A stretch of DNA of 6,663 bases from a virus (taxonomy: Duplodnaviria > Heunggongvirae > Uroviricota > Caudoviricetes). The notes under the pieces were generated by a model. The model was not told the origin of the DNA, made no database searches, and was given only the letters and a program-made list of their open reading frames with translations. Location: positions 1 to 6,663 of the IMG/VR virus record IMGVR_UViG_2648501669_000009. One strand, 5' to 3'. Positions within the stretch are counted from its first letter, which is position 1, and every line of letters begins with the position of its first letter. The position numbers and the translations under genes are program-made. This document shows, one piece after another, positions 319 through 6,573 of the stretch.

Positions 319-630
319 TTACGCTTCAGCCTTATTTCTCAGCCATACACAAACAGGACCATCTTCAGTGTCATGAATGGAACCAATGAACCAGCCATCG
401 CCCTCTGGTCGTTCCGGTTCCCATGCTGAAATATCAGGGCCATCTGCGTCCAGGTTAAAATCATCTTCATCCATAGTGCAGATAGTCCACTGAAGATTAT
501 TTGCCTCCATCCACGCGTTAAATTCCTCTGTGGAAATATATTCACGACCTGCGCAAAACTTTTCATACTCAGGATGTGTCCAGCAGCCATATTCATCACG
601 TACTACTGGTATTTCTTTAATTTCATTCAT
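319..630 (-). CDS. Hypothetical acidic protein, 103 aa (phage accessory; family not recognised)
   Basis: ORF MNEIKEIPVVRDEY...VWLRNKAEA. Its ATG at 630 overlaps the upstream stop in an ATGAATGA arrangement, with GGGAGA about 6 nt upstream. Very acidic and Trp-rich. Confidence 0.7.
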   Translation of the reverse strand: MNEIKEIPVVRDEYGCWTHPEYEKFCAGREYISTEEFNAWMEANNLQWTICTMDEDDFNLDADGPDISAWEPERPEGDGWFIGSIHDTEDGPVCVWLRNKAEA

Positions 631-877
631 TTCTGTTCTCCCACGTTTTCAGACTTTCACCACAGAACGGACAAAATGAAACCCGCACTGGTGATTTAGA
701 AAATTCACCGGAACGCAACATCACCAAATCAGGGCCGCGAGTTAAACTCTCATTCCAGATTTTGTATATCAGCAGACCTTTTCGCGTCGTGTATTCAGCA
801 TCATGCTCAAGGGATTTTGCCAGTGCCGTACACGGTTCTATCTTGTTGCCATTAATTTGGCATTTTGACTCACTCAC
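623..877 (-). CDS. Hypothetical Cys-containing small protein, 84 aa (putative zinc-binding)
   Basis: The track ORF 623-910 begins at a TTG inside the upstream gene. A GTG at 877-875 is preceded by AGGAGA plus a 6-nt spacer and overlaps the upstream TGA as GTGA, so it is the preferred start. The product (VSESKCQ...FCPFCGESLKTWENRNE) has Cys6, Cys16 and a C-terminal CPFC, a possible split zinc site. Confidence 0.6.
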   Translation of the reverse strand: MSESKCQINGNKIEPCTALAKSLEHDAEYTTRKGLLIYKIWNESLTRGPDLVMLRSGEFSKSPVRVSFCPFCGESLKTWENRNE

Positions 878-1341
878 TGGTTGTCTCCTTTGCGAATCTG
901 TTCCGCACAATGCAACAATGCTTCTGTCACTTCCTTAAGCGTTACAGTATCGGCATCATCCAGTTCTGCAACTTTTGCATGCCTGACAAACGCCGCGCGA
1001 AGCTCGTTAAACGCCACCGCCTGTATATCAGCCAGGAAAGCGTCAGTAGCTGGCGTTTCAGGCTTGAATCCATTTGCATCGCGTGGGCTGATGTCATCGC
1101 TTGTATAAATAAAGCAATCATCCTTAATGAATTTATTTAACCCCACATTCTCCACTGCCAGCGTCGCAAAATTAGCTTCCAGTTCTGCAATGCGTTTGCT
1201 TTGGGCTTCCCGTTCATCCAGCAGTTCCAACACAACCTGAGGTGTGACTTTCATGCGAAATGCCAGCAATTTTTGTGGTGTGGCTGCGATTTTTATTGCT
1301 TCTGCCACATCACGCAGTACCTGGTAATTAATGTTGCTCAC
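874..1341 (-). CDS. Coiled-coil protein, 155 aa, possibly Ead/Ea22-like
   Basis: The track ORF starts at ATG 1368 with no RBS. A GTG at 1341-1339 is preceded by AGGAGG (plus 1348-1353 cctcct) with a 6-nt spacer. The product (VSNINYQVLRDVAEAIK...ELEANFATLAVENVG...) has a predicted coiled-coil N-terminal half. The Ea22 resemblance is from memory only. Confidence 0.65.
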   Translation of the reverse strand: MSNINYQVLRDVAEAIKIAATPQKLLAFRMKVTPQVVLELLDEREAQSKRIAELEANFATLAVENVGLNKFIKDDCFIYTSDDISPRDANGFKPETPATDAFLADIQAVAFNELRAAFVRHAKVAELDDADTVTLKEVTEALLHCAEQIRKGDNQ

Positions 1342-1633
1342 TGGTTGCCTCCTGGAAAATAACTGCATGCCCCAGCTTCTCCGCCAGTGCCAGTTCCGCC
1401 TTAGCGCCTGCTGACCGCTGCCAGCCTTTCAGCATGTAAATCGCATCCACACAACGAATCATTGCCATGCAAATATCCATGTAGTGTGGCTGTGTCAGTC
1501 CGTCCGGAAGTACTGCCGGGTTTAAGACTGTATGCCCTTCCCGTTTCAGTTCCTCTTCCGCCTTGTGAAACGCCTCACGGTTGAAATTTTCATATCCCGT
1601 CATTGGACCGGCGATATAAACCCTCACCCTCAC
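1328..1633 (-). CDS. DUF4406-type protein (nucleoside 2-deoxyribosyltransferase-like fold), 101 aa
   Basis: The N-terminus MRVRVYIAGPMTGYENFN matches the YIAGPMTG signature I associate with the DUF4406 family. GTG start at 1633 with AGGAGG 8 nt upstream; it overlaps the upstream stop as GTGA. Confidence 0.8.
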   Translation of the reverse strand: MRVRVYIAGPMTGYENFNREAFHKAEEELKREGHTVLNPAVLPDGLTQPHYMDICMAMIRCVDAIYMLKGWQRSAGAKAELALAEKLGHAVIFQEATSEQH

Positions 1634-1947
1634 TCCTGTATCCTCCTGTCGAAATAAACATAGTTATTCACCGTGCGCAGCGGCATTTCGAGTTTTTCCG
1701 CTATCTCGCGACGAGAAATACCCTGCTCATGTAGCTTTCGTATCAGCTCAACACTGCTCCAGGGGATTTTTACCGACTGATGAAAATCACCTCGCAATAT
1801 CAGACTGATACCCAGTTCCCGCGCTTTTGTTCTTACTGCCACCTCCGTGCGACCAGTCAGTTTCCCGATATCTTTCACCCGCATGGTGCCAGCACACTGC
1901 CGGAGTATCAGAATTTCAGCCCTGCACCACTTCTTCCAGTTGCTCAC
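1630..1947 (-). CDS. Small DNA-binding protein with helix-turn-helix motifs, 105 aa (alternative start ATG 1884 gives 84 aa)
   Basis: The track ORF 1630-2034 overlaps the upstream gene by 80 nt. A GTG at 1947-1945 lies 5 nt after the upstream TAA and shares the GTGAGCAAC start context of the gene at 1341. HTH-like segments: GKLTGRTEVAVRTKARELGI and ISRREIAEKLEMPLRTVNNYV (NinH-like pattern). The start is not certain. Confidence 0.55.
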   Translation of the reverse strand: MSNWKKWCRAEILILRQCAGTMRVKDIGKLTGRTEVAVRTKARELGISLILRGDFHQSVKIPWSSVELIRKLHEQGISRREIAEKLEMPLRTVNNYVYFDRRIQE

Positions 1948-1952
1948 TGCTG

Positions 1953-2693
1953 TTACTCTCTGGTGGCAGTAATCTGTCGGAGAATATCCCGGTACTTGTT
2001 CAGCTCCCGCAGCGCGGCACAGACTCGCTCCCATTTCCGGATATCACTTTTCGCCCGACGCAGCTCGCGGTTTGCCTGTCGCAGCGATGGCAGAACCAGA
2101 TTATCCACTCGCTTCTCAAGCGGCTGCACAATGTCTGCCACAGTTTCTGTTTTAATATCTTCCTGTGTTGCAGCTTCCTGTACTGGTAACGCAACACATG
2201 CAGGCTGAGGAAAGGCTTTACCATCAGTTTCCGCTACCGATGCCGCTTTCGGCTCTGCTGGTAAATTACCGCCCGGCATGCAGTAGCGAAATTTACCGTT
2301 CTGGTTTACGCGTGCCAGCCGCCCCGTTGCGGTTACTACCGCCAGCGTGGAAGCAACCTTGCGAGTGCTGACACCGAACTTACCCGCCAGTTCCTCACAC
2401 GTTTTAGCTCCCTCCTGACCGATAAACTCAATCATCATGTCAGCGGTAACTTTTCGTTCGACCTCCCTGGTTAGCACATCCTGTACTTCAGATTGTGCTG
2501 GCTGCTCTTCGGCTACCCCTGATTCACCTTCGCCAGCCACACGCCAGGTGTATACGCTTTTATCAACGAAGCCAGCCTTTTTCAGTTCCCACAGCTCGTT
2601 CAGTACTTCTTCACGACTGATATCAAGTCGCGCAGCCAGCTCTACCGACGTGGCTTTTCCCATCGCTTTCAGTGCGTCAAAAACAGTCTCCAT
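1953..2693 (-). CDS. Tandem winged-helix-like protein with C-terminal coiled coil, 246 aa (phage early protein, function unknown)
   Basis: The track start (2744) overlaps the DnaC-like gene. The internal ATG at 2693-2691 has GGGAGG 8 nt upstream and sits 22 nt after the DnaC-like stop. Two similar segments ([30 protein letters not shown] and [34 protein letters not shown]) precede a basic, heptad-like C-terminus. Confidence 0.75.
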
Positions 2694-2715
2694 TAAAATT
2701 TCCTCCCGGTAAAAA

Positions 2716-3462
2716 TTACTTCTCAATACCTGGCTGACCAACATTCGGGCGCCAGCTCTCCCAGTTAAAATTCACCCATCGCCCGCCGTTCATGGTCATG
2801 CGATCCATAATCCGCTCGCCGAGCAATGTTTTCATGGCCTCATAGTTCAGGTTTGTCAGCATTCCCACGCTGCGCATCGACGCTGTCCGGCGATCAACAA
2901 TCTGGTGCAGTACCACCTGCTCGTTTTTCGTCTCGCGCTGAATGCCAATTTCATCAAGAACCAGCAGATCCACTTCGCACAGTTCCCGCAAAAATTTTTC
3001 GCCTGATTGCCCGTCGTCATAGCTGGCGTGTAGAGCACTCATAACATCAGCCACGGTAACCACAATCACTGTCTGGCCATCTTTCAGCAGGCGATTCCCG
3101 ATAGCCGCCGCTAAGTGGTTTTTCCCGGTACCAGGTTTTCCGCTGAATGCGAAATTTGTGCATCCGGTCATCAGTTCATCGGCGATGGATTTCACCTGGC
3201 TCAACGCGTATCGCTGGCCGTCATTCTGCACCTGGTAATTCGCAAACGAGCACTTGCGGTGCAACGGCTGGATGCCGGAGCGATTCAGAATTTTTTCCAC
3301 CCGCAACTGACGATTCTGGCGGTTGATCTCCTCGCAACGCTTCTGGCCTTCTGCAAGTTGCCACTCGCGCCACTCGTCCACTGTTCGGTATGGCGCGGTT
3401 ACATGCTGCGGAGCCAGCTTACGGATGCGTTCAAGAACACCGCCTGTCGCAATATTTTTCAT
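2716..3462 (-). CDS. DnaC-like AAA+ helicase loader (lambda P functional analogue; YdaV-type replication protein)
   Basis: Walker [16 protein letters not shown] and Walker B LLVLDEIG, 248 aa. The ATG at 3462 follows the O-like stop by 6 nt, with a GGGGG SD. Confidence 0.9.
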
Positions 3463-3468
3463 GCTTCG

Positions 3469-4416
3469 TTACCCCCTGAATCCCGGCGGAATTTCGGCGT
3501 CCGGCTCGGAAATATGATTCACGCAACGCTGTACAGGCGAACGCCCCAGACGAATAACCAGCTCATCCCATTTTTCGCGAAGCTTTGACGGGCTCATGAC
3601 GTTTTTTACCCAGAATGGATCCCGCTGTGCCCGACCAAACATTTCGCAAATTTGCCTGTGAGTTCTGCCATCAAGCATCCGCATTGTGCGCACGTCATTG
3701 GCCCATGCAGTCCAGTTGGGTTCTTTCGGTCGCATGATTTCGCCATCATCGCTGGCAGCCTGCTCGTAAAGACTCACGATTCGTCCCCAGATCCACTGCG
3801 CACACGCCAAATCTTCCTGGCTGCCCCACTGGCGTTTTTTCGCACTGAACACAACCGCGTCAGGGTGTCGGGTTAAAAAATCCTGTTCAGCCGTCTGCGG
3901 GTCCGGTTGCGAAGCGTCCGGACGAAAAGATCTTTTATCTGACGGATCAGGTTTTAATACTGACGGATCGGGGCCAACCATCGCCCCCCTAACCGGATGT
4001 TTTTTATCAACGGTTGATCCATCAAAATTTGAGGGGTCAACCGTTGAGGGGTCAATATTTGACGGGTCATTTTTTACCGGGTTAATTTTTCTTTTCGGTT
4101 TATATGCCTCACGCGCCGCCGCTGCTGCTGCTTCGAGTTTTTCCACATTAAGACGGTAGATATTGCTTTCATTACGCCCACCGACCTTACGTTCTTCCTT
4201 CGTCAGCCAGCCGTTCTTTTCCAGTTCTGCTATCGCAGCTTTAACCGTTGATTCACTCTTTGCCCCAATCTGACGACGAATGGTCTCCACTGCAGGCCAT
4301 GACACACCTTCGTCATTGCTGTAATCTGCAAGGCGAGCCATTACTGCCACCCTGGATAAGATCATGCCGGTGAAGGCGCACCCTTCCCAGACAAGACCAT
4401 GAAGCTTGCTGCTCAT
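3469..4416 (-). CDS. Phage replication initiation protein (lambda O-like: N-terminal winged-helix DNA-binding domain, repeat/poly-Ala linker, C-terminal domain)
   Basis: 315 aa. The N-terminal domain is HTH-like (VSWPAVETIRRQIGAKSESTVKAAIAELEKNGWL). The central region encodes EAAAAAARE and DPS repeats (DPSNIDPSTVDPSNFDGSTVD) that coincide with DNA iterons. It sits immediately upstream of the DnaC-like gene. GGAG SD 7 nt before ATG 4416. Confidence 0.85.
   Translation of the reverse strand: MSSKLHGLVWEGCAFTGMILSRVAVMARLADYSNDEGVSWPAVETIRRQIGAKSESTVKAAIAELEKNGWLTKEERKVGGRNESNIYRLNVEKLEAAAAAAREAYKPKRKINPVKNDPSNIDPSTVDPSNFDGSTVDKKHPVRGAMVGPDPSVLKPDPSDKRSFRPDASQPDPQTAEQDFLTRHPDAVVFSAKKRQWGSQEDLACAQWIWGRIVSLYEQAASDDGEIMRPKEPNWTAWANDVRTMRMLDGRTHRQICEMFGRAQRDPFWVKNVMSPSKLREKWDELVIRLGRSPVQRCVNHISEPDAEIPPGFRG
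3940..4074. repeat. Iteron-like direct repeats (core TGA[C/G]GG[A/G]TCA, at least 5 copies) inside the O-like gene, followed by an AT-rich tract: putative prophage replication origin
   Basis: Copies at 3940-3949 tgacggatca, 3961-3970 tgacggatcg, 4030-4039 tgaggggtca, 4045-4054 tgaggggtca and 4060-4069 tgacgggtca, the last three as tandem 15-bp units. Inverted repeats tcaacggttga (4008-4018) and tcaaccgttga (4037-4047). AT-rich tract about 4069-4105. Confidence 0.6.
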
Positions 4417-4440
4417 AAAAAAACTCCGAACACCGTGCTT

Positions 4441-4866
4441 TTAGTGCATCACCAAGGCATTTCCCGCCGGACCACCACGATTCATCTGATTGAAACCAGC
4501 GATCGCCACTGCGACAAAATCATCAGCGTCTCTCACCAGTCGTTCCCGCGTCTCCACCAGCTCCCGAAACCAGGCTGAACTGTGGCTGCGCATTCGGGCC
4601 ACCAGCAGAGGAGGCATTGCTTTTTCGATCGCTGGTAACAACGCCTGAATTTTTTTAACCGCATCAGGGGTGTCTTTCTCCACCCAGCGGAAAATTTTCT
4701 GAGTATTGCGAGCCAGGGCTTCCGGATGGCTGTCGTCATATAATTCCGGGAACGTCATACCCAGCTCAAAATAAGCCCGGGTTATTTCAGCTGCCGGAAC
4801 TTTTTCACCGTCCGGATGCGCCCAGGCATTCATCGCCATGCGGATGTGTTCATGCTTGATTTTCAT
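4441..4866 (-). CDS. ydaT: YdaT-family protein (CII-like regulator of Rac/CP-933P-type prophages), 141 aa
   Basis: N-terminus MKIKHEHI. Its ATG overlaps the ydaS-like stop as ATGA (4866-4863). Second gene of the rightward-early-type operon, directly before the O-like gene. Confidence 0.8.
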   Translation of the reverse strand: MKIKHEHIRMAMNAWAHPDGEKVPAAEITRAYFELGMTFPELYDDSHPEALARNTQKIFRWVEKDTPDAVKKIQALLPAIEKAMPPLLVARMRSHSSAWFRELVETRERLVRDADDFVAVAIAGFNQMNRGGPAGNALVMH

Positions 4867-5165
4867 GAATCAACTCCATCAGATAAGCATGCACTACAAT
4901 CACCTTCAGCATGAACTACATGTGTTTGCCCCAAACGAATGCCGCTCGCATACTCAGGCCAAATAAGCTCCCAATCATGGGGTCGTAGCTCCGCCCTACT
5001 TACTTGGCCTTCCGTCGCAGATTCGATCATAAGGGCGCGGGTTGGAGATATAGCTGCTCGTCCAGACGCCATTTGCGATAAGTAAGATGGCGATACACCA
5101 AGTCTGGCCGCGAATTTCTTAGCATCACCAACCCTCAATGATTTAATAAACTCTTTTAATGTCAT
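4863..5165 (-). CDS. ydaS: YdaS-family Cro-like HTH regulator, 100 aa
   Basis: HTH DAKKFAARLGVSPSYLSQMASGRAAISPTRALMIESAT. First gene transcribed divergently from the repressor gene. GAGGAAGG SD before ATG 5165. Confidence 0.8.
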   Translation of the reverse strand: MTLKEFIKSLRVGDAKKFAARLGVSPSYLSQMASGRAAISPTRALMIESATEGQVSRAELRPHDWELIWPEYASGIRLGQTHVVHAEGDCSACLSDGVDS

Positions 5166-5175
5166 ACCTTCCTCG

Positions 5176-5251
5176 GTTTAGTGTTTTTTTGTGAGTTTAG
5201 TGTTTAATAAACCATTAAGTCAAGTATTTGCTTGTTTAGTGATTACTAAAG
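5176..5251. promoter_or_regulatory. OR-like operator cluster: three 18-bp sites each starting GTTTAGTG
   Basis: Sites at 5176-5193 gtttagtgtttttttgtg, 5195-5212 gtttagtgtttaataaac (GTTTA-N8-TAAAC dyad) and 5234-5251 gtttagtgattactaaag, all in the 97-bp interval between the divergent ydaS-like and repressor genes. Confidence 0.5.
5194..5223 (-). promoter_or_regulatory. PR-like sigma70 promoter for the ydaS-ydaT-O-DnaC operon
   Basis: Minus-strand -35 TTGACT (plus 5218-5223), 18-nt spacer, -10 TAAACT (plus 5194-5199). The operator at 5195-5212 covers the spacer and -10. Confidence 0.4.
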
Positions 5252-5256
5252 ATAAT
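5228..5256 (+). promoter_or_regulatory. PRM-like promoter for the repressor operon; predicted leaderless mRNA
   Basis: -35 TTGCTT (5228-5233), 17-nt spacer, -10 GATAAT (5251-5256). The ATG at 5263 lies 6 nt after the -10 with no SD, so the transcript would start at or next to the start codon. Confidence 0.45.
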
Positions 5257-5262
5257 TACCGC

Positions 5263-5634
5263 ATGCAAAAAAAAGAAATTCGCCGTTTACGTCTCAAGGA
5301 GTGGTTTAAAGATAAAACTCTGCCACCCAAAGAGAAGAGCTACCTATCTCAACTAATGAGTGGGAGGGCCTCGTTTGGAGAAAAGGCTGCCAGAAGAATA
5401 GAGCAAACATACGGGATGCCGGAAGGGTATCTGGATGCGGAATACGCAGAACAACCGGAAGTTTCTCCACCACATGCAGGGTTAACGTCTAATCAACTGG
5501 AATTATTGCAGATTTTTTCAGCCTTCCCTGAGGATGAGCAACGCCAGATAATCAGCGAGTTAAAGCAGAAAAAAGAATCAATGGAAGATCTCATAGCGAG
5601 ATGGATTGCGGCGCAAAAATGCCGCCGCGCCTGA
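5263..5634 (+). CDS. paaR2: XRE-family HTH repressor (CI-like prophage repressor; PaaR2-type regulator of a three-gene TA operon), 123 aa
   Basis: The track ORF begins at GTG 5191, only 25 nt from the divergent gene. The ATG at 5263 leaves room for both promoters. HTH KSYLSQLMSGRASFGEKAARRIEQTYGMPEGYLD. Divergent from the Cro-like gene and followed by an antitoxin-toxin pair. Confidence 0.7.
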   Translation: MQKKEIRRLRLKEWFKDKTLPPKEKSYLSQLMSGRASFGEKAARRIEQTYGMPEGYLDAEYAEQPEVSPPHAGLTSNQLELLQIFSAFPEDEQRQIISELKQKKESMEDLIARWIAAQKCRRA

Positions 5635-5654
5635 GTTATAAAACCGGAGGAAAC

Positions 5655-5846
5655 ATGAATAGAGCCCTTTCACCAATGGTTTCTGAATTTGAAACCATTG
5701 AACAAGAAAACAGTTACAACGAATGGCTGCGTGCGAAAGTAGCAACGAGCCTTGCAGATCCGCGCCCAGCAATTCCCCATGACGAAGTTGAGCGCAGAAT
5801 GGCAGAACGCTTTGCTAAAATGCGCAAGGAACGGAGCAAGCAGTAA
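5655..5846 (+). CDS. paaA2: PaaA2-type antitoxin, 63 aa
   Basis: The track ORF starts at ATG 5601 inside the repressor gene. The ATG at 5655 is preceded by GGAGGA (5645-5650). The 63-aa product (MNRALSPMVSEFETIEQENSYNEWLRAKVATSLADPRPAIPHDEVERRMAERFAKMRKERSKQ) matches the length and character I recall for PaaA2. Confidence 0.8.
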   Translation: MNRALSPMVSEFETIEQENSYNEWLRAKVATSLADPRPAIPHDEVERRMAERFAKMRKERSKQ

Positions 5847-5847
5847 A

Positions 5848-6126
5848 ATGTTACCCGTGTTATGGCTTGAAAGCGCAGATACCGACCTAGATGATATAGC
5901 TAGCTATATTGCTCGTTTCGACATAGATGCGGCTGAACGCTTATGGCAGCGATTAAGGGGTTGTGTGCTGCCGTTATCCGAACATCCGTATTTATACCCA
6001 CCAAGCGACAGAGTACCTGGCTTGCGTGAGATTGTAGCCCACCCTAACTATATAATTCTATACCGCGTAACAACATCAAGCGTTGAAGTAGTAAACGTGA
6101 TCCACGCAAGACGCCAGTTTCCCTAA
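5848..6126 (+). CDS. parE2: ParE-family toxin (ParE2-type), 92 aa
   Basis: ATG 5848 lies 1 nt after the antitoxin TAA (TAAaATG). The product MLPVLWLESADTDLDDIASYIARFDIDAAERLWQRL...ILYRVTTSSVEVVNVIHARRQFP has a ParE/RelE-like layout. The longer track ORF from 5752 is an in-frame upstream extension overlapping the antitoxin. Confidence 0.85.
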   Translation: MLPVLWLESADTDLDDIASYIARFDIDAAERLWQRLRGCVLPLSEHPYLYPPSDRVPGLREIVAHPNYIILYRVTTSSVEVVNVIHARRQFP

Positions 6127-6155
6127 CTTTCACTACCAATAGAAACATAACAACC

Positions 6156-6187
6156 GCAACGACTTTATCAAAAGCGTTGTGTTTGTT
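6156..6187 (+). terminator. Weak putative terminator after the TA operon (tImm-like position)
   Basis: CAACG (6157-6161) pairs with CGTTG (6175-6179) across a 13-nt loop, followed by the U-rich gtttgtt (6181-6187). Short stem, so low confidence. Confidence 0.3.
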
Positions 6188-6197
6188 ACGCTCCGTG

Positions 6198-6238
6198 GTT
6201 TAGTTTTTACTTGACTTAAGTTTAATGTTTATTAAACT
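6198..6238 (+). promoter_or_regulatory. OL-like operator copies plus PL-like promoter for the early-left genes
   Basis: 6220-6237 gtttaatgtttattaaac matches the OR site 5195-5212 at 16 of 18 positions. 6198-6215 gtttagtttttacttgac shares only the left half. -35 TTGACT (6211-6216), 16-nt spacer, -10 TAAACT (6233-6238), the same hexamers as the PR-like promoter. Confidence 0.45.
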
Positions 6239-6417
6239 AAAAATACCAACCCACCCCGCCCCACAGAATGCAGGGCAATACTTCGAGTTACCAGGCAGTG
6301 GTCAGGGGTTAAGTAGCCAGCCCGAGGCGTAAGAACATGACGGCAGGGTTCAACTTTAATAACTATGCAGCAGGTTTTTGTTCCGCTACCCCGGCGTTAA
6401 GGGGAAATGAGGTCAGC

Positions 6418-6573
6418 ATGGATACTATCGATCTTGGCAACAACGAATCTCTGGTGTACGGCGTGTTTCTCAACCAGGACGGTACGTTCACCGCGATGAC
6501 GTATACCAAAAGCAAAACGTTTAAAACCGAATCTGGCGCGCGTCGCTGGCTGGAAAGAAATTCAGGTGAGTGA
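6418..6573 (+). CDS. Small early-left protein, 51 aa (I believe it resembles Rac YdaF, unverified)
   Basis: ATG 6418 with GAGG 5 nt upstream. Product MDTIDLGNNESLVYGVFLNQDGTFTAMTYTKSKTFKTESGARRWLERNSGE. The track start at 6337 has no SD and would give 78 aa. Confidence 0.6.
   Translation: MDTIDLGNNESLVYGVFLNQDGTFTAMTYTKSKTFKTESGARRWLERNSGE

Follow-up and report, generated by a model that had tools for sequence, protein, structure and literature searches.

The 6,663-nucleotide window, i.e., the whole stretch of DNA analyzed here, carries on its minus strand two small overlapping genes of the ydaS and ydaT types, which raise the question of whether they form a toxin-antitoxin (TA) module or an early regulatory pair equivalent to cro and cII of lambda. 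The list of open reading frames (ORFs) places the pair at 4441-5165, exactly the limits given in an earlier note on this DNA. We consider it very likely that the window carries the genes for immunity and replication of a lambdoid prophage of the CP-933P type, in which the 100-aa protein is the Cro-equivalent YdaS and the 141-aa protein the CII-equivalent YdaT, rather than a TA pair. This reading is supported and already published (Casjens 2003; Jobling 2018; Jurenas 2021; Prolic-Kalinsek 2023; Wons 2025), and the work on Rac and CP-933P that the note mentioned does reach this conclusion (PMC8630535, PMC9986795, PMC11879457). Because the region is mosaic, no complete Escherichia coli genome matched the window at high identity over its entire length; the closest contig found was IMG/VR UViG_2671180847_000006, 99.87% identical over 4.7 kb.

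Table 1. Features of the window, with the observations on which each assignment rests.
Feature	Position	Strand	Basis
DnaC-like helicase-loader gene	2716..3462	-	NCBIfam PRK12377 3.4e-153, DnaC 7.6e-91; Pfam IstB_IS21 1.8e-20
O-like replication initiator gene	3469..4416	-	PHROG 391 'replication initiation O-like' 2.5e-112; Pfam HTH_36; 24 nt 3' of ydaT
ydaT-type gene, 141 aa, putative CII-equivalent tetrameric HTH regulator	4441..4866	-	ORF, Pfam, PDB, PHROG
YdaT operator OM, inverted repeat TTGATTTTCATGAATCAA, centered on the ATGA junction	4856..4873		exact TTGATT-N6-AATCAA match
ATGA start/stop overlap of ydaS and ydaT	4863..4866	-	read from sequence
ydaS-type gene, 100 aa, Cro-equivalent HTH regulator, first gene of the rightward (PR) operon	4863..5165	-	ORF, Pfam, PDB, PHROG
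Exchangeable immunity cassette (ydaS, OR, paaR2, paaA2, parE2, PL/OL)	4877..6245		mosaic breakpoints, partner/repressor co-variation
Divergent control region (OR), 97 bp, GTTTAGT-type operator repeats	5166..5262		bound by PaaR2 and YdaS in CP-933P
PR-like promoter TTGACT-18-TAAACT, for ydaS-ydaT-O-dnaC	5194..5223	-	consensus scan
PRM-like promoter TTGCTT-17-GATAAT	5228..5256	+	read from sequence; by analogy with CP-933P
paaR2-type repressor gene, 123 aa, CI equivalent	5263..5634	+	in frame with ORF 5191..5634
paaA2 antitoxin gene, 63 aa	5655..5846	+	Pfam PaaA2 PF21217 1e-19; NCBIfam RelB-family antitoxin 5.2e-24; PDB 3zbe/5cw7 5.5e-37
parE2 toxin gene, 92 aa	5848..6126	+	Pfam ParE_toxin PF05016 6.7e-17; PDB 5cw7_B 3.6e-59
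PL-like promoter TTGACT-16-TAAACT (6211-6238) with operator-like GTTTAGT/GTTTAATAA repeats	6198..6238	+	sequence scan

Comparison of the ORF order with the lambda layout confirmed that the pair occupies the positions of cro and cII (Table 1). ydaS and ydaT are the first two genes of an operon divergent from the repressor gene, and they lie directly 5' of the O-like and DnaC-like genes on the same strand, as the earlier note had stated. The ATGA overlap that it described is also present: on the minus strand, the ydaT ATG (4866-4864) and the ydaS TGA (4865-4863) have three bases in common, and a GGAG sequence is found 7 nt 5' of the ydaT ATG. Because of this overlap, translation of ydaT is probably coupled to that of ydaS.

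YdaS matched the Pfam families YdaS_toxin (PF15943; 3.9e-12, 46.2 bits) and HTH_3 (1.4e-06, 28.7 bits) and PHROG 35, 'transcriptional repressor' (6.9e-24). It is identical at 99 of 100 residues to PDB 8c7k, a 'Phage antirepressor protein Cro' that we take to be the YdaS of CP-933P. Direct BLASTP comparison with lambda Cro gave no significant similarity. The protein has the attributes of the Cro type, being a small XRE-type HTH protein encoded by the first divergent gene, with operator repeats in the 97-bp spacer. The YdaS of CP-933P binds operators that the repressor PaaR2 also binds, and it represses both PRM and PR (PMC8630535); carried over to the window, this suggests that its YdaS shares operators with the neighboring repressor.

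Over its full length, YdaT matched PDB entries 3c4r (6.4e-89) and 8bt1, the YdaT of CP-933P (3.6e-80); it also matched PHROG 163, 'CII-like transcriptional activator' (1.4e-45), and Pfam YdaT_toxin (PF06254; 1.4e-09, 38.7 bits versus a cutoff of 21). By our count, 137 of the 141 residues aligned with 3c4r, an entry with four chains, are identical, and overall identity is 99% to the E24377A protein and 84% to the O157:H7 CP-933P protein (8bt1). The recognition-helix residues N54, Q56, R60 and W61 are all kept. Among 24 YdaT members sharing 26-54% identity the first three never vary and W61 is kept in at least 90%, and Arg60 is singled out in PMC9986795. Those members came from an exhaustive representative search; a closer search, whose listed matches (at least 120 homologues) were all at least 80% identical, was for that reason useful for database names and not for diversity. 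The C terminus of YdaT is predicted to form a long helix with a hydrophobic core for a four-helix-bundle tetramer, placed at 98-129 in an AF2 model of low confidence. Of the helix-6 core residues I103, L110, V111, V114, F117, V118 and A121 (PMC9986795), five of seven are identical to those of CP-933P, and the two changes, I103L and V114A, are conservative. YdaT proteins 93-95% identical to this one are found at the cII position of inducible or isolated phages; those of Escherichia phage Tritos and vB_EcoS-640R1 are 95% identical.

The description of the 141-aa product as CII-like held for position and function but not for sequence. BLASTP against lambda CII yielded E = 2.2 over 18 residues, i.e., no detectable homology, no Pfam Phage_CII match was found in YdaT at E <= 0.01, and the YdaT site is an inverted repeat; the lambda-type CII site TTGC-N6-TTGC is absent anywhere in the window. 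YdaT and lambda CII are analogues and not homologues. A 'Q-I-x-R-W' likeness between the recognition helices of YdaT and CII, stressed in PMC11879457, was below BLAST reporting and was not counted as homology. The YdaT of CP-933P had no detectable toxicity and activated a PRE-like promoter (PMC8630535). It is a tetramer with HTH domains, and its footprint covers TTGATT-N6-AATCAA where ydaS and ydaT meet (PMC9986795). The published CII role of YdaT rests on reporter fusions in the defective prophages CP-933P and Rac.

A search of the window for TTGATT-N6-AATCAA returned a single exact match, versus 0.00 expected from 200 shuffles. It also conforms to the YdaT-family pattern (T/A)TGATT-N6-AATCAA over the ydaT start codon, and it is contained in a 134-bp segment (4827-4960) identical to the footprinted O157:H7 CP-933P sequence, in which the OM site was defined by DNase I footprinting and ITC (PMC9986795). 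Binding and activation of the leftward promoter have been shown for the CP-933P and Rac proteins (PMC8630535, PMC9986795, PMC11879457), and by extension the YdaT of the window would bind OM and activate a leftward promoter. We assign no coordinates to that promoter, PRE, because a consensus scan around OM gave no plus-strand candidate. The two papers differ on where the site lies relative to the promoter: 'downstream of PRE / covers the start' for CP-933P, versus a position some 190 bp 5' of the reverse promoter for Rac.

In the divergent control region, GTTTAGTGTTT occurs at 5176, 5195 and 5234 together with inverted partners, and 95 of its 97 bases are identical to those of O157:H7 CP-933P, whose spacer is likewise 97 bp long with an inverted-repeat consensus GTTTAGTAA (PMC8630535). 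The PR-like promoter, the position of which agrees with that of PR933P mapped by 5' RACE (PMC8630535), is probably functional in the window. Its PRM-like counterpart was missed by the consensus scan because only 3 of 6 bases of the -35 hexamer match. By analogy with CP-933P, for which a leaderless paaR2 transcript and an MQKKE N terminus have been shown (PMC8630535), transcription from it would begin at about the A of the paaR2 ATG and yield a leaderless mRNA. The repressor of the window also starts with MQKKE, and it matched PDB 7nkv, 'Phage repressor protein CI', over residues 1-71 (1.3e-39) and PHROG 5736 (1.6e-39). As reported for PL933P (PMC8630535), the PL-like hexamers are the same as those of PR. 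PaaA2 and ParE2 are encoded downstream of this PaaR2-type regulator, which makes up the three-gene paaR2-paaA2-parE2 arrangement. The pair identified by Pfam and by PDB 3zbe and 5cw7 is found across the operator, where the earlier note had located the true TA operon, and paaA2-parE2 is the sole real TA system in the window.

We compared 83 related loci, which is the new part of this analysis and provides independent support for the Cro/CII reading. YdaT proteins 84-100% identical were joined to 10 unrelated Cro-like HTH partners, from families less than 50% identical to each other, and each of the ten partner clusters corresponded to a single one of ten repressor clusters. The two apparent exceptions were a locus for which only a C-terminal fragment of the usual repressor was called and a locus with a different repressor. 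O-gene types assorted independently. Homology of the window to the heteroimmune relatives L006-L008 ends at 4876 and returns at 6246, which delimits the exchangeable cassette. The exchange of YdaT among partners that each track their own repressor is expected of Cro and CII, and not of a cognate TA pair. YdaT and its operator appear as a portable module common to many heteroimmune lambdoid phages, and paaA2-parE2 move inside the immunity cassette along with the repressor and the Cro-type gene. As this module travels over at least 10 immunity types, the YdaT of one prophage could act on others, and it could activate repressor synthesis, here also that of the TA genes, in heteroimmune co-resident prophages.

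Transposed by sequence identity from the near-identical CP-933P locus, for which it has been shown, the switch would operate as follows. PaaR2 and YdaS would compete for the operators of GTTTAGT type located between PRM and PR, the two divergent promoters, with PaaR2 turning off PR and PL and YdaS preferentially turning off PRM, which together would make a bistable switch. Firing of PR would co-transcribe ydaS and ydaT with the O-like and DnaC-like replication genes. The long C-terminal helix would then assemble YdaT into a 222-symmetric tetramer, whose POU-like HTH domains would bind the inverted repeat at 4856-4873 and activate the otherwise silent PRE. The PRE transcript, antisense through ydaS and running into paaR2-paaA2-parE2, would offer a second, repressor-independent route to repressor synthesis.

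The pairing data bear on the view of YdaS/YdaT as a type II TA system in which YdaT is the toxin and YdaS an HTH antitoxin that neutralizes it by direct binding and autoregulates the operon. A near-identical YdaT with 10 unrelated partners is incompatible with a co-evolving cognate neutralizer, and the partner tracks the repressor. The pair does consist of small, adjacent, overlapping genes with an HTH protein encoded by the 5' one, and YdaS matched HigA weakly, both as the antitoxin family TIGR02607 (1.3e-05, 24.9 bits, below the cutoff of 47.7) and among PDB entries (0.02-0.1). The TA assignment also has behind it the original RASTA prediction, as cited in PMC5917428, and the names 'YdaT_toxin', 'YdaS_toxin' and 'toxin YdaT family protein' in Pfam and RefSeq. 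However, YdaT does not have a known toxin fold but is an HTH tetramer that binds DNA at an operator that has been mapped (PMC9986795), the CP-933P protein is not toxic (PMC8630535), and a dedicated 2010 study, as cited in PMC5917428 and PMC9986795, saw no TA behavior. We regard this view as extremely improbable and largely refuted already. The pair might instead serve mainly as a 'toxin-repressor' addiction module in the lysogen, as proposed for racR-ydaST, with Cro/CII-like regulation being vestigial. racR is essential in Rac because ydaS and ydaT are otherwise derepressed (PMC5917430), Rac YdaT causes filamentation through rcsA (PMC11879457), growth slows when CP-933P YdaS and PaaR2 are overexpressed for long periods (PMC8630535), and the cassette, present in 583 of 5426 complete E. 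coli genomes, resides mostly in cryptic prophages. Yet the Rac authors themselves concede that toxicity is probably a by-product of regulatory activity (PMC5917430), CP-933P YdaT lacks it (PMC8630535), and the phages with 93-95% identical YdaT at the cII position are inducible or isolated ones. Operator, promoters and partner-repressor co-variation are kept, as for a working switch, and paaA2-parE2 already provide the addiction function of the cassette (PMC8630535), so that we find an addiction role very unlikely.

It is also unlikely, if slightly less so, that YdaT chiefly represses, forms a roadblock or regulates host genes, limiting ydaT-O-dnaC expression from OM or acting on host promoters. 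The location of OM would suit this role, as it overlaps both the start codon of ydaT and its ribosome-binding site, within the unit transcribed from PR; PMC9986795 repeatedly applies the word 'repressor' to YdaT and puts OM over or after the PRE start, and further sites bound by Rac YdaT lie in the ydaS promoter region and at the host rcsA promoter (PMC11879457). Nevertheless, in reporter assays the leftward promoter was activated, not repressed, by both CP-933P and Rac YdaT (PMC8630535, PMC11879457), mutation of the YdaT-box barely altered ydaT expression in Rac (PMC11879457), and the window has no second exact operator. The Cro/CII reading leaves room for some toxicity: this YdaT allele, 84% identical to the one studied, may be somewhat toxic when overexpressed, because derepression of the Rac YdaS and YdaT proteins, about 31% identical, is lethal (PMC5917430; PMC11879457).

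YdaT might in addition carry a C-terminal degradation signal and be an unstable regulator like lambda CII, although we consider this rather doubtful. In the crystal structure 8bt1 the final 15 or so residues, QMNRGGPAGNALVMH in the window, are disordered. Among 28 close alleles this tail is better conserved than the tetramerization helix, with 10% variable sites at positions 127-136 versus 48% in helix 6. The final residue is His in 15 of the 24 family members with 26-54% identity, preceded in 14 of those 15 by a hydrophobic or aromatic residue. Such an ending resembles the Lon degron of SulA (...SNLYH), in which Lon contacts Tyr19 and His20 (PMC8087443). Proteolysis goes unmentioned in the two YdaT papers, and searching the literature for links of YdaT to FtsH, Lon or a degron returned general protease papers only.

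The finding matters chiefly for annotation. Databases do label the pair as TA, as the earlier note had stated: the Pfam families are YdaS_toxin and YdaT_toxin, and the RefSeq name of the 141-aa product was 'toxin YdaT family protein' in every E. coli genome listed. This name, overturned by the experimental literature, persists in thousands of E. coli genomes and can mislead TA censuses. The further concern that the label hides the real TA operon was not borne out for current RefSeq, because paaA2 is correctly annotated there as a RelB-family antitoxin and parE2 as a RelE/ParE-family toxin. The YdaT homologue already goes by the name 'CII' in phage databases and in several phage records.

With type II TA pairs that have an HTH antitoxin, as in HigBA/RASTA-type predictions, the locus has in common two small overlapping genes, one encoding an XRE-type HTH protein. 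Unlike in such pairs, the protein presumed to be the toxin binds specific DNA sequences as a tetramer, the two partners are not inherited together, and the CP-933P proteins showed neither toxicity nor neutralization (PMC8630535). The likeness to lambda lies in the succession of repressor, divergent operators, cro-like, cII-like and O genes and then a helicase loader, in the repressor mRNA, predicted to be leaderless here too, and in the accessory genes after the repressor, rexAB in lambda and paaA2-parE2 here. By analogy, a tetrameric second regulator would in both cases activate a leftward establishment promoter at the cro/cII border. In contrast to lambda, YdaS and YdaT have no sequence similarity to Cro and CII, the YdaT site is an inverted repeat bound with 222 symmetry instead of the direct repeat of CII, and there is no room for nutR/tR1 between ydaS and ydaT because the genes overlap. 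Lambda has three operators, whereas the published control region of CP-933P has four 18-bp inverted repeats plus three overlapping operators.

The racR-ydaS-ydaT locus of Rac (E. coli K-12) has the same position, a tetrameric HTH YdaT and a YdaT-box, ATGATTCATGAAAATCAA, over the ydaT start codon (PMC11879457); its YdaT activates a reverse promoter feeding the repressor, and experiments have shown cross-activation between the Rac and CP-933P YdaT proteins (PMC11879457). However, Rac YdaT is only about 31% identical to that of the window, the Rac YdaS and YdaT proteins kill the cell on derepression and extend their action to the host rcsA promoter, and paaA2-parE2 do not follow the repressor. 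The differences from CP-933P (Sp12, E. coli O157:H7) are the 84% identity of YdaT, with most changes in the tetramerization helix and the nearest relative being of the 3c4r/E24377A type, and the mosaic flanking replication and accessory genes. Gene order, overlap, 97-bp region, predicted leaderless MQKKE start, OM and PL hexamers are all the same, YdaS is one residue off 8c7k, and PaaA2 and ParE2 match solved CP-933P proteins. The window is a clean additional copy of this characterized switch.

The ydaS and ydaT genes head a minus-strand operon, in which the genes of an O-like replication initiator and a DnaC-like loader follow after a 24-nt gap. The ydaS stop codon and the ydaT start codon share an ATGA tetranucleotide (4866-4863, minus strand). 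The ORF table and the sequence bore out to the base the extent of the pair (4441-5165) and the overlap described in the earlier note. Its placement of the pair as cro and cII, at the head of an operon divergent from the repressor gene and upstream of the O-like and DnaC-like genes, likewise holds, as the lambda order cI, operators, cro, cII, O, P is also that of the window. No terminator-like hairpin or obvious OOP-like element was found in the 24-nt gap (4417-4440) before the O-like gene.

Coordinates of genes and promoter-like elements in the window
Feature	Position	Strand	Basis or remark
Two ORFs	319-630, 623-910		no family match
Ead/Ea22-like protein	874-1368		prophage gene
DUF4406	1328-1633		prophage gene
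134-aa HTH protein	1630-2034		prophage gene
DUF1627	1953-2744		prophage gene
DnaC-like loader	2716-3462	-	NCBIfam PRK12377, 3.4e-153
O-like replication initiator	3469-4416	-	PHROG 391, 2.5e-112
ydaT-type ORF, 141 aa	4441-4866	-	ORF table
ydaS-type ORF, 100 aa	4863-5165	-	ORF table
PR-like promoter, TTGACT-18-TAAACT	5223-5194	-	points into ydaS
Repressor gene paaR2, 123 aa, N-terminus MQKKE	start 5263	+	ORF 97 bp upstream of ydaS, opposite strand
paaA2	5655-5846	+	Pfam PaaA2, 1e-19; PDB 3zbe, 5cw7
parE2	5848-6126	+	Pfam ParE_toxin, 6.7e-17; PDB 5cw7
PL-like promoter, TTGACT-16-TAAACT	6211-6238 (region 6198-6238)	+	same hexamers as PR
DUF1391	6418-6573		prophage gene

Inside the O-like gene (3940-4069), five copies of TGA-N-SS-R-TCA lie at 3940, 4015, 4030, 4045 and 4060, the last four 15 bp apart (8 strand-hits versus 0.47 expected), and a T-rich stretch (4070-4110) adjoins them. 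The array looks like origin iterons within the initiator gene, as in lambda.

The operator of YdaT has been defined by footprinting and calorimetry as 5'-TTGATT-N6-AATCAA-3' (PMC9986795). This motif occurs once in the window, at 4856-4873 (TTGATTTTCATGAATCAA), with 0 expected from 200 shuffles, and its centre lies on the ATGA junction. Alignment with an O157:H7 genome showed 4827-4960 to be identical base for base to prophage CP-933P, and the 97-bp control region between paaR2 and ydaS differs from that of CP-933P by 2 bases. The GTTTAGT-type repeats of this region agree with the published consensus GTTTAGTAA (PMC8630535). Operator-like repeats (GTTTAGT/GTTTAATAA) flank the PL-like promoter, fitting the published description of PL933P. 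A GATAAT at 5251-5256 lies 7 bases ahead of the A of the paaR2 ATG, a position that would suit the published leaderless paaR2 transcript. The three promoter-like elements agree with the published CP-933P map.

YdaS matches Pfam YdaS_toxin and HTH_3 and has all but one residue in common with PDB 8c7k, whose deposited name is 'Phage antirepressor protein Cro'. YdaT matches Pfam YdaT_toxin, PDB 3c4r (6.4e-89) and 8bt1 (3.6e-80), the last of these being a CP-933P YdaT crystal structure. YdaT shares 84% identity with its O157:H7 counterpart and 99% with the one in E. coli E24377A, and its PHROGs class is 'CII-like transcriptional activator' (1.4e-45). The N-terminal domain of the repressor matches PDB 7nkv, 'Phage repressor protein CI'. 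Together with the PaaA2 and ParE2 matches, all five immunity-region proteins thus have solved, named counterparts. By family, the two proteins are a YdaS and a YdaT, and the locus is of the CP-933P type.

In CP-933P, footprints of PaaR2 and of YdaS fall on the 97-bp region, and each protein represses both promoters, with opposite preferences; YdaT leaves PR, PRM and PL unaffected but activates a silent promoter where ydaS meets ydaT, it lacks toxicity, and the locus behaves as a bistable one (PMC8630535). The C-terminal helices of YdaT form the four-helix bundle that holds its tetramer together, and its HTH domains are POU-like (PMC9986795). The Rac protein, approximately 31% identical, binds ATGATTCATGAAAATCAA, a box of near-identical sequence lying over the start codon of its own gene, and activates a reverse promoter feeding racR, with cross-activation between it and the CP-933P protein (PMC11879457). 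Given the sequence identities between the window and CP-933P, we infer with high confidence that the same mechanism would apply to the window alleles, PaaR2 and YdaS sharing operators and YdaT turning on the border promoter.

The Cro/CII reading itself was already known, as the earlier note had correctly stated: it was argued from context by Casjens 2003 and Jobling 2018 (PMC5917428) and shown experimentally by Jurenas 2021, Prolic-Kalinsek 2023 and Wons 2025. We extended a set of 80 IMG/VR YdaT-encoding loci by the window, a phage record and two E. coli genomes and examined the gene upstream of ydaT in each, with junction counts for 83. YdaT was 84-100% identical across all these loci, and the core GATTCATGAAAATCA was present in 82 of 83 junctions. 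The left half-site differed in its first bases only (TTGATT, ATGATT, GTGATT or GGGATT); at 20 loci of the 83 (e.g., L026, L030 and L032) the right half-site was AATCAG, accompanied by a K4R change in YdaT. The fourth ydaT codon consists of the same bases as the right half-site, so that K4R turns AATCAA into AATCAG and coding and operator changes are linked.

The genes overlapping ydaT upstream, all small and HTH-regulator-like by inspection, fell into 10 clusters with under 50% identity between clusters. Each cluster pairs with its own repressor cluster. Two loci are apparent exceptions: in one, the usual repressor was called only as a C-terminal fragment, and the other has a different repressor. 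The O-gene type assorts independently. Homology of the window to heteroimmune relatives ends at 4876, three bases beyond the YdaT operator, and restarts at 6246. Thus, 4877-6245 behaves as an exchangeable immunity cassette in which ydaS, the operators, paaR2, paaA2-parE2 and PL travel together; ydaT and its operator form part of the adjoining module. In six of the 10 partner families (L001, L013, L014, L017-L022 and other loci), the upstream ORF shares 17 nt with ydaT and has the same C-terminal tail, ...IHENQA, encoded by the ydaT module in another frame, so that the partner C-terminus is made by the module junction.

This swapping is expected of an immunity-specific Cro and a shared CII, and is the opposite of what is expected of a cognate toxin-antitoxin (TA) pair. 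What speaks for a TA pair is gene size, adjacency and database names: Pfam has YdaS_toxin and YdaT_toxin, as the earlier note had said of databases. However, near-identical YdaT proteins are joined to 10 partner clusters, so that the TA reading fails on co-inheritance, and neither toxicity nor neutralisation is reported in the literature for the CP-933P proteins. The operator, the partner swapping and the CP-933P literature all support Cro/CII-like regulators as the better reading. The concern that mislabelling hides the genuine TA operon was borne out in part: RefSeq retains 'toxin YdaT family protein', but paaA2 and parE2 are annotated correctly there. GenBank MN652886 (Escherichia phage Rac, locus L085) carries swapped notes, with dicC as 'cII' and ydaT as 'cro', one more case of inconsistent labels for the pair.

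This is a common cassette: its ydaS-paaR2 core occurs in 583 out of 5426 complete E. coli genomes (coverage of at least 80%), mostly at 99% identity or more, and YdaT-related DNA in 3291 genomes. The YdaT family is small: a search of 1.84 billion representatives gave 76 clusters (50% identity). Four very long proteins of 642-1632 aa (P0184, P0185, P0186 and P0191) each contain 4-6 weak YdaT-like stretches, reflecting either unexpected repeated domain use or a chance or low-complexity match.

Membership of YdaT in the lambda CII family was ruled out: it has no Pfam Phage_CII match, BLASTP against lambda CII gave E = 2.2, and the lambda CII site TTGC-N6-TTGC is absent from the window. 'CII-like' therefore describes how YdaT works, not its descent. 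Unlike their lambda equivalents, ydaS and ydaT overlap, so that a nutR/tR1 element could not fit between them. The YdaT tail (residues 127-141; window 4441-4485) is disordered in crystal 8bt1 yet unusually conserved; among close alleles, variation at positions 127-136 is far lower than in helix 6, the tetramerisation helix, and RGG(P/S)xG(N/D) recurs as far as Rac. A C-terminal His is present in 15 of 24 diverse members, preceded in 14 of these by a hydrophobic or aromatic residue. Protein stability is not discussed in the two YdaT papers. The Lon degron of SulA ends in ...LYH, of which the last two residues are recognised (PMC8087443), and by this resemblance the YdaT tail may, hypothetically, be a stability signal; if so, such a degron at the C-terminus would round off the parallel between YdaT and the unstable CII of lambda.
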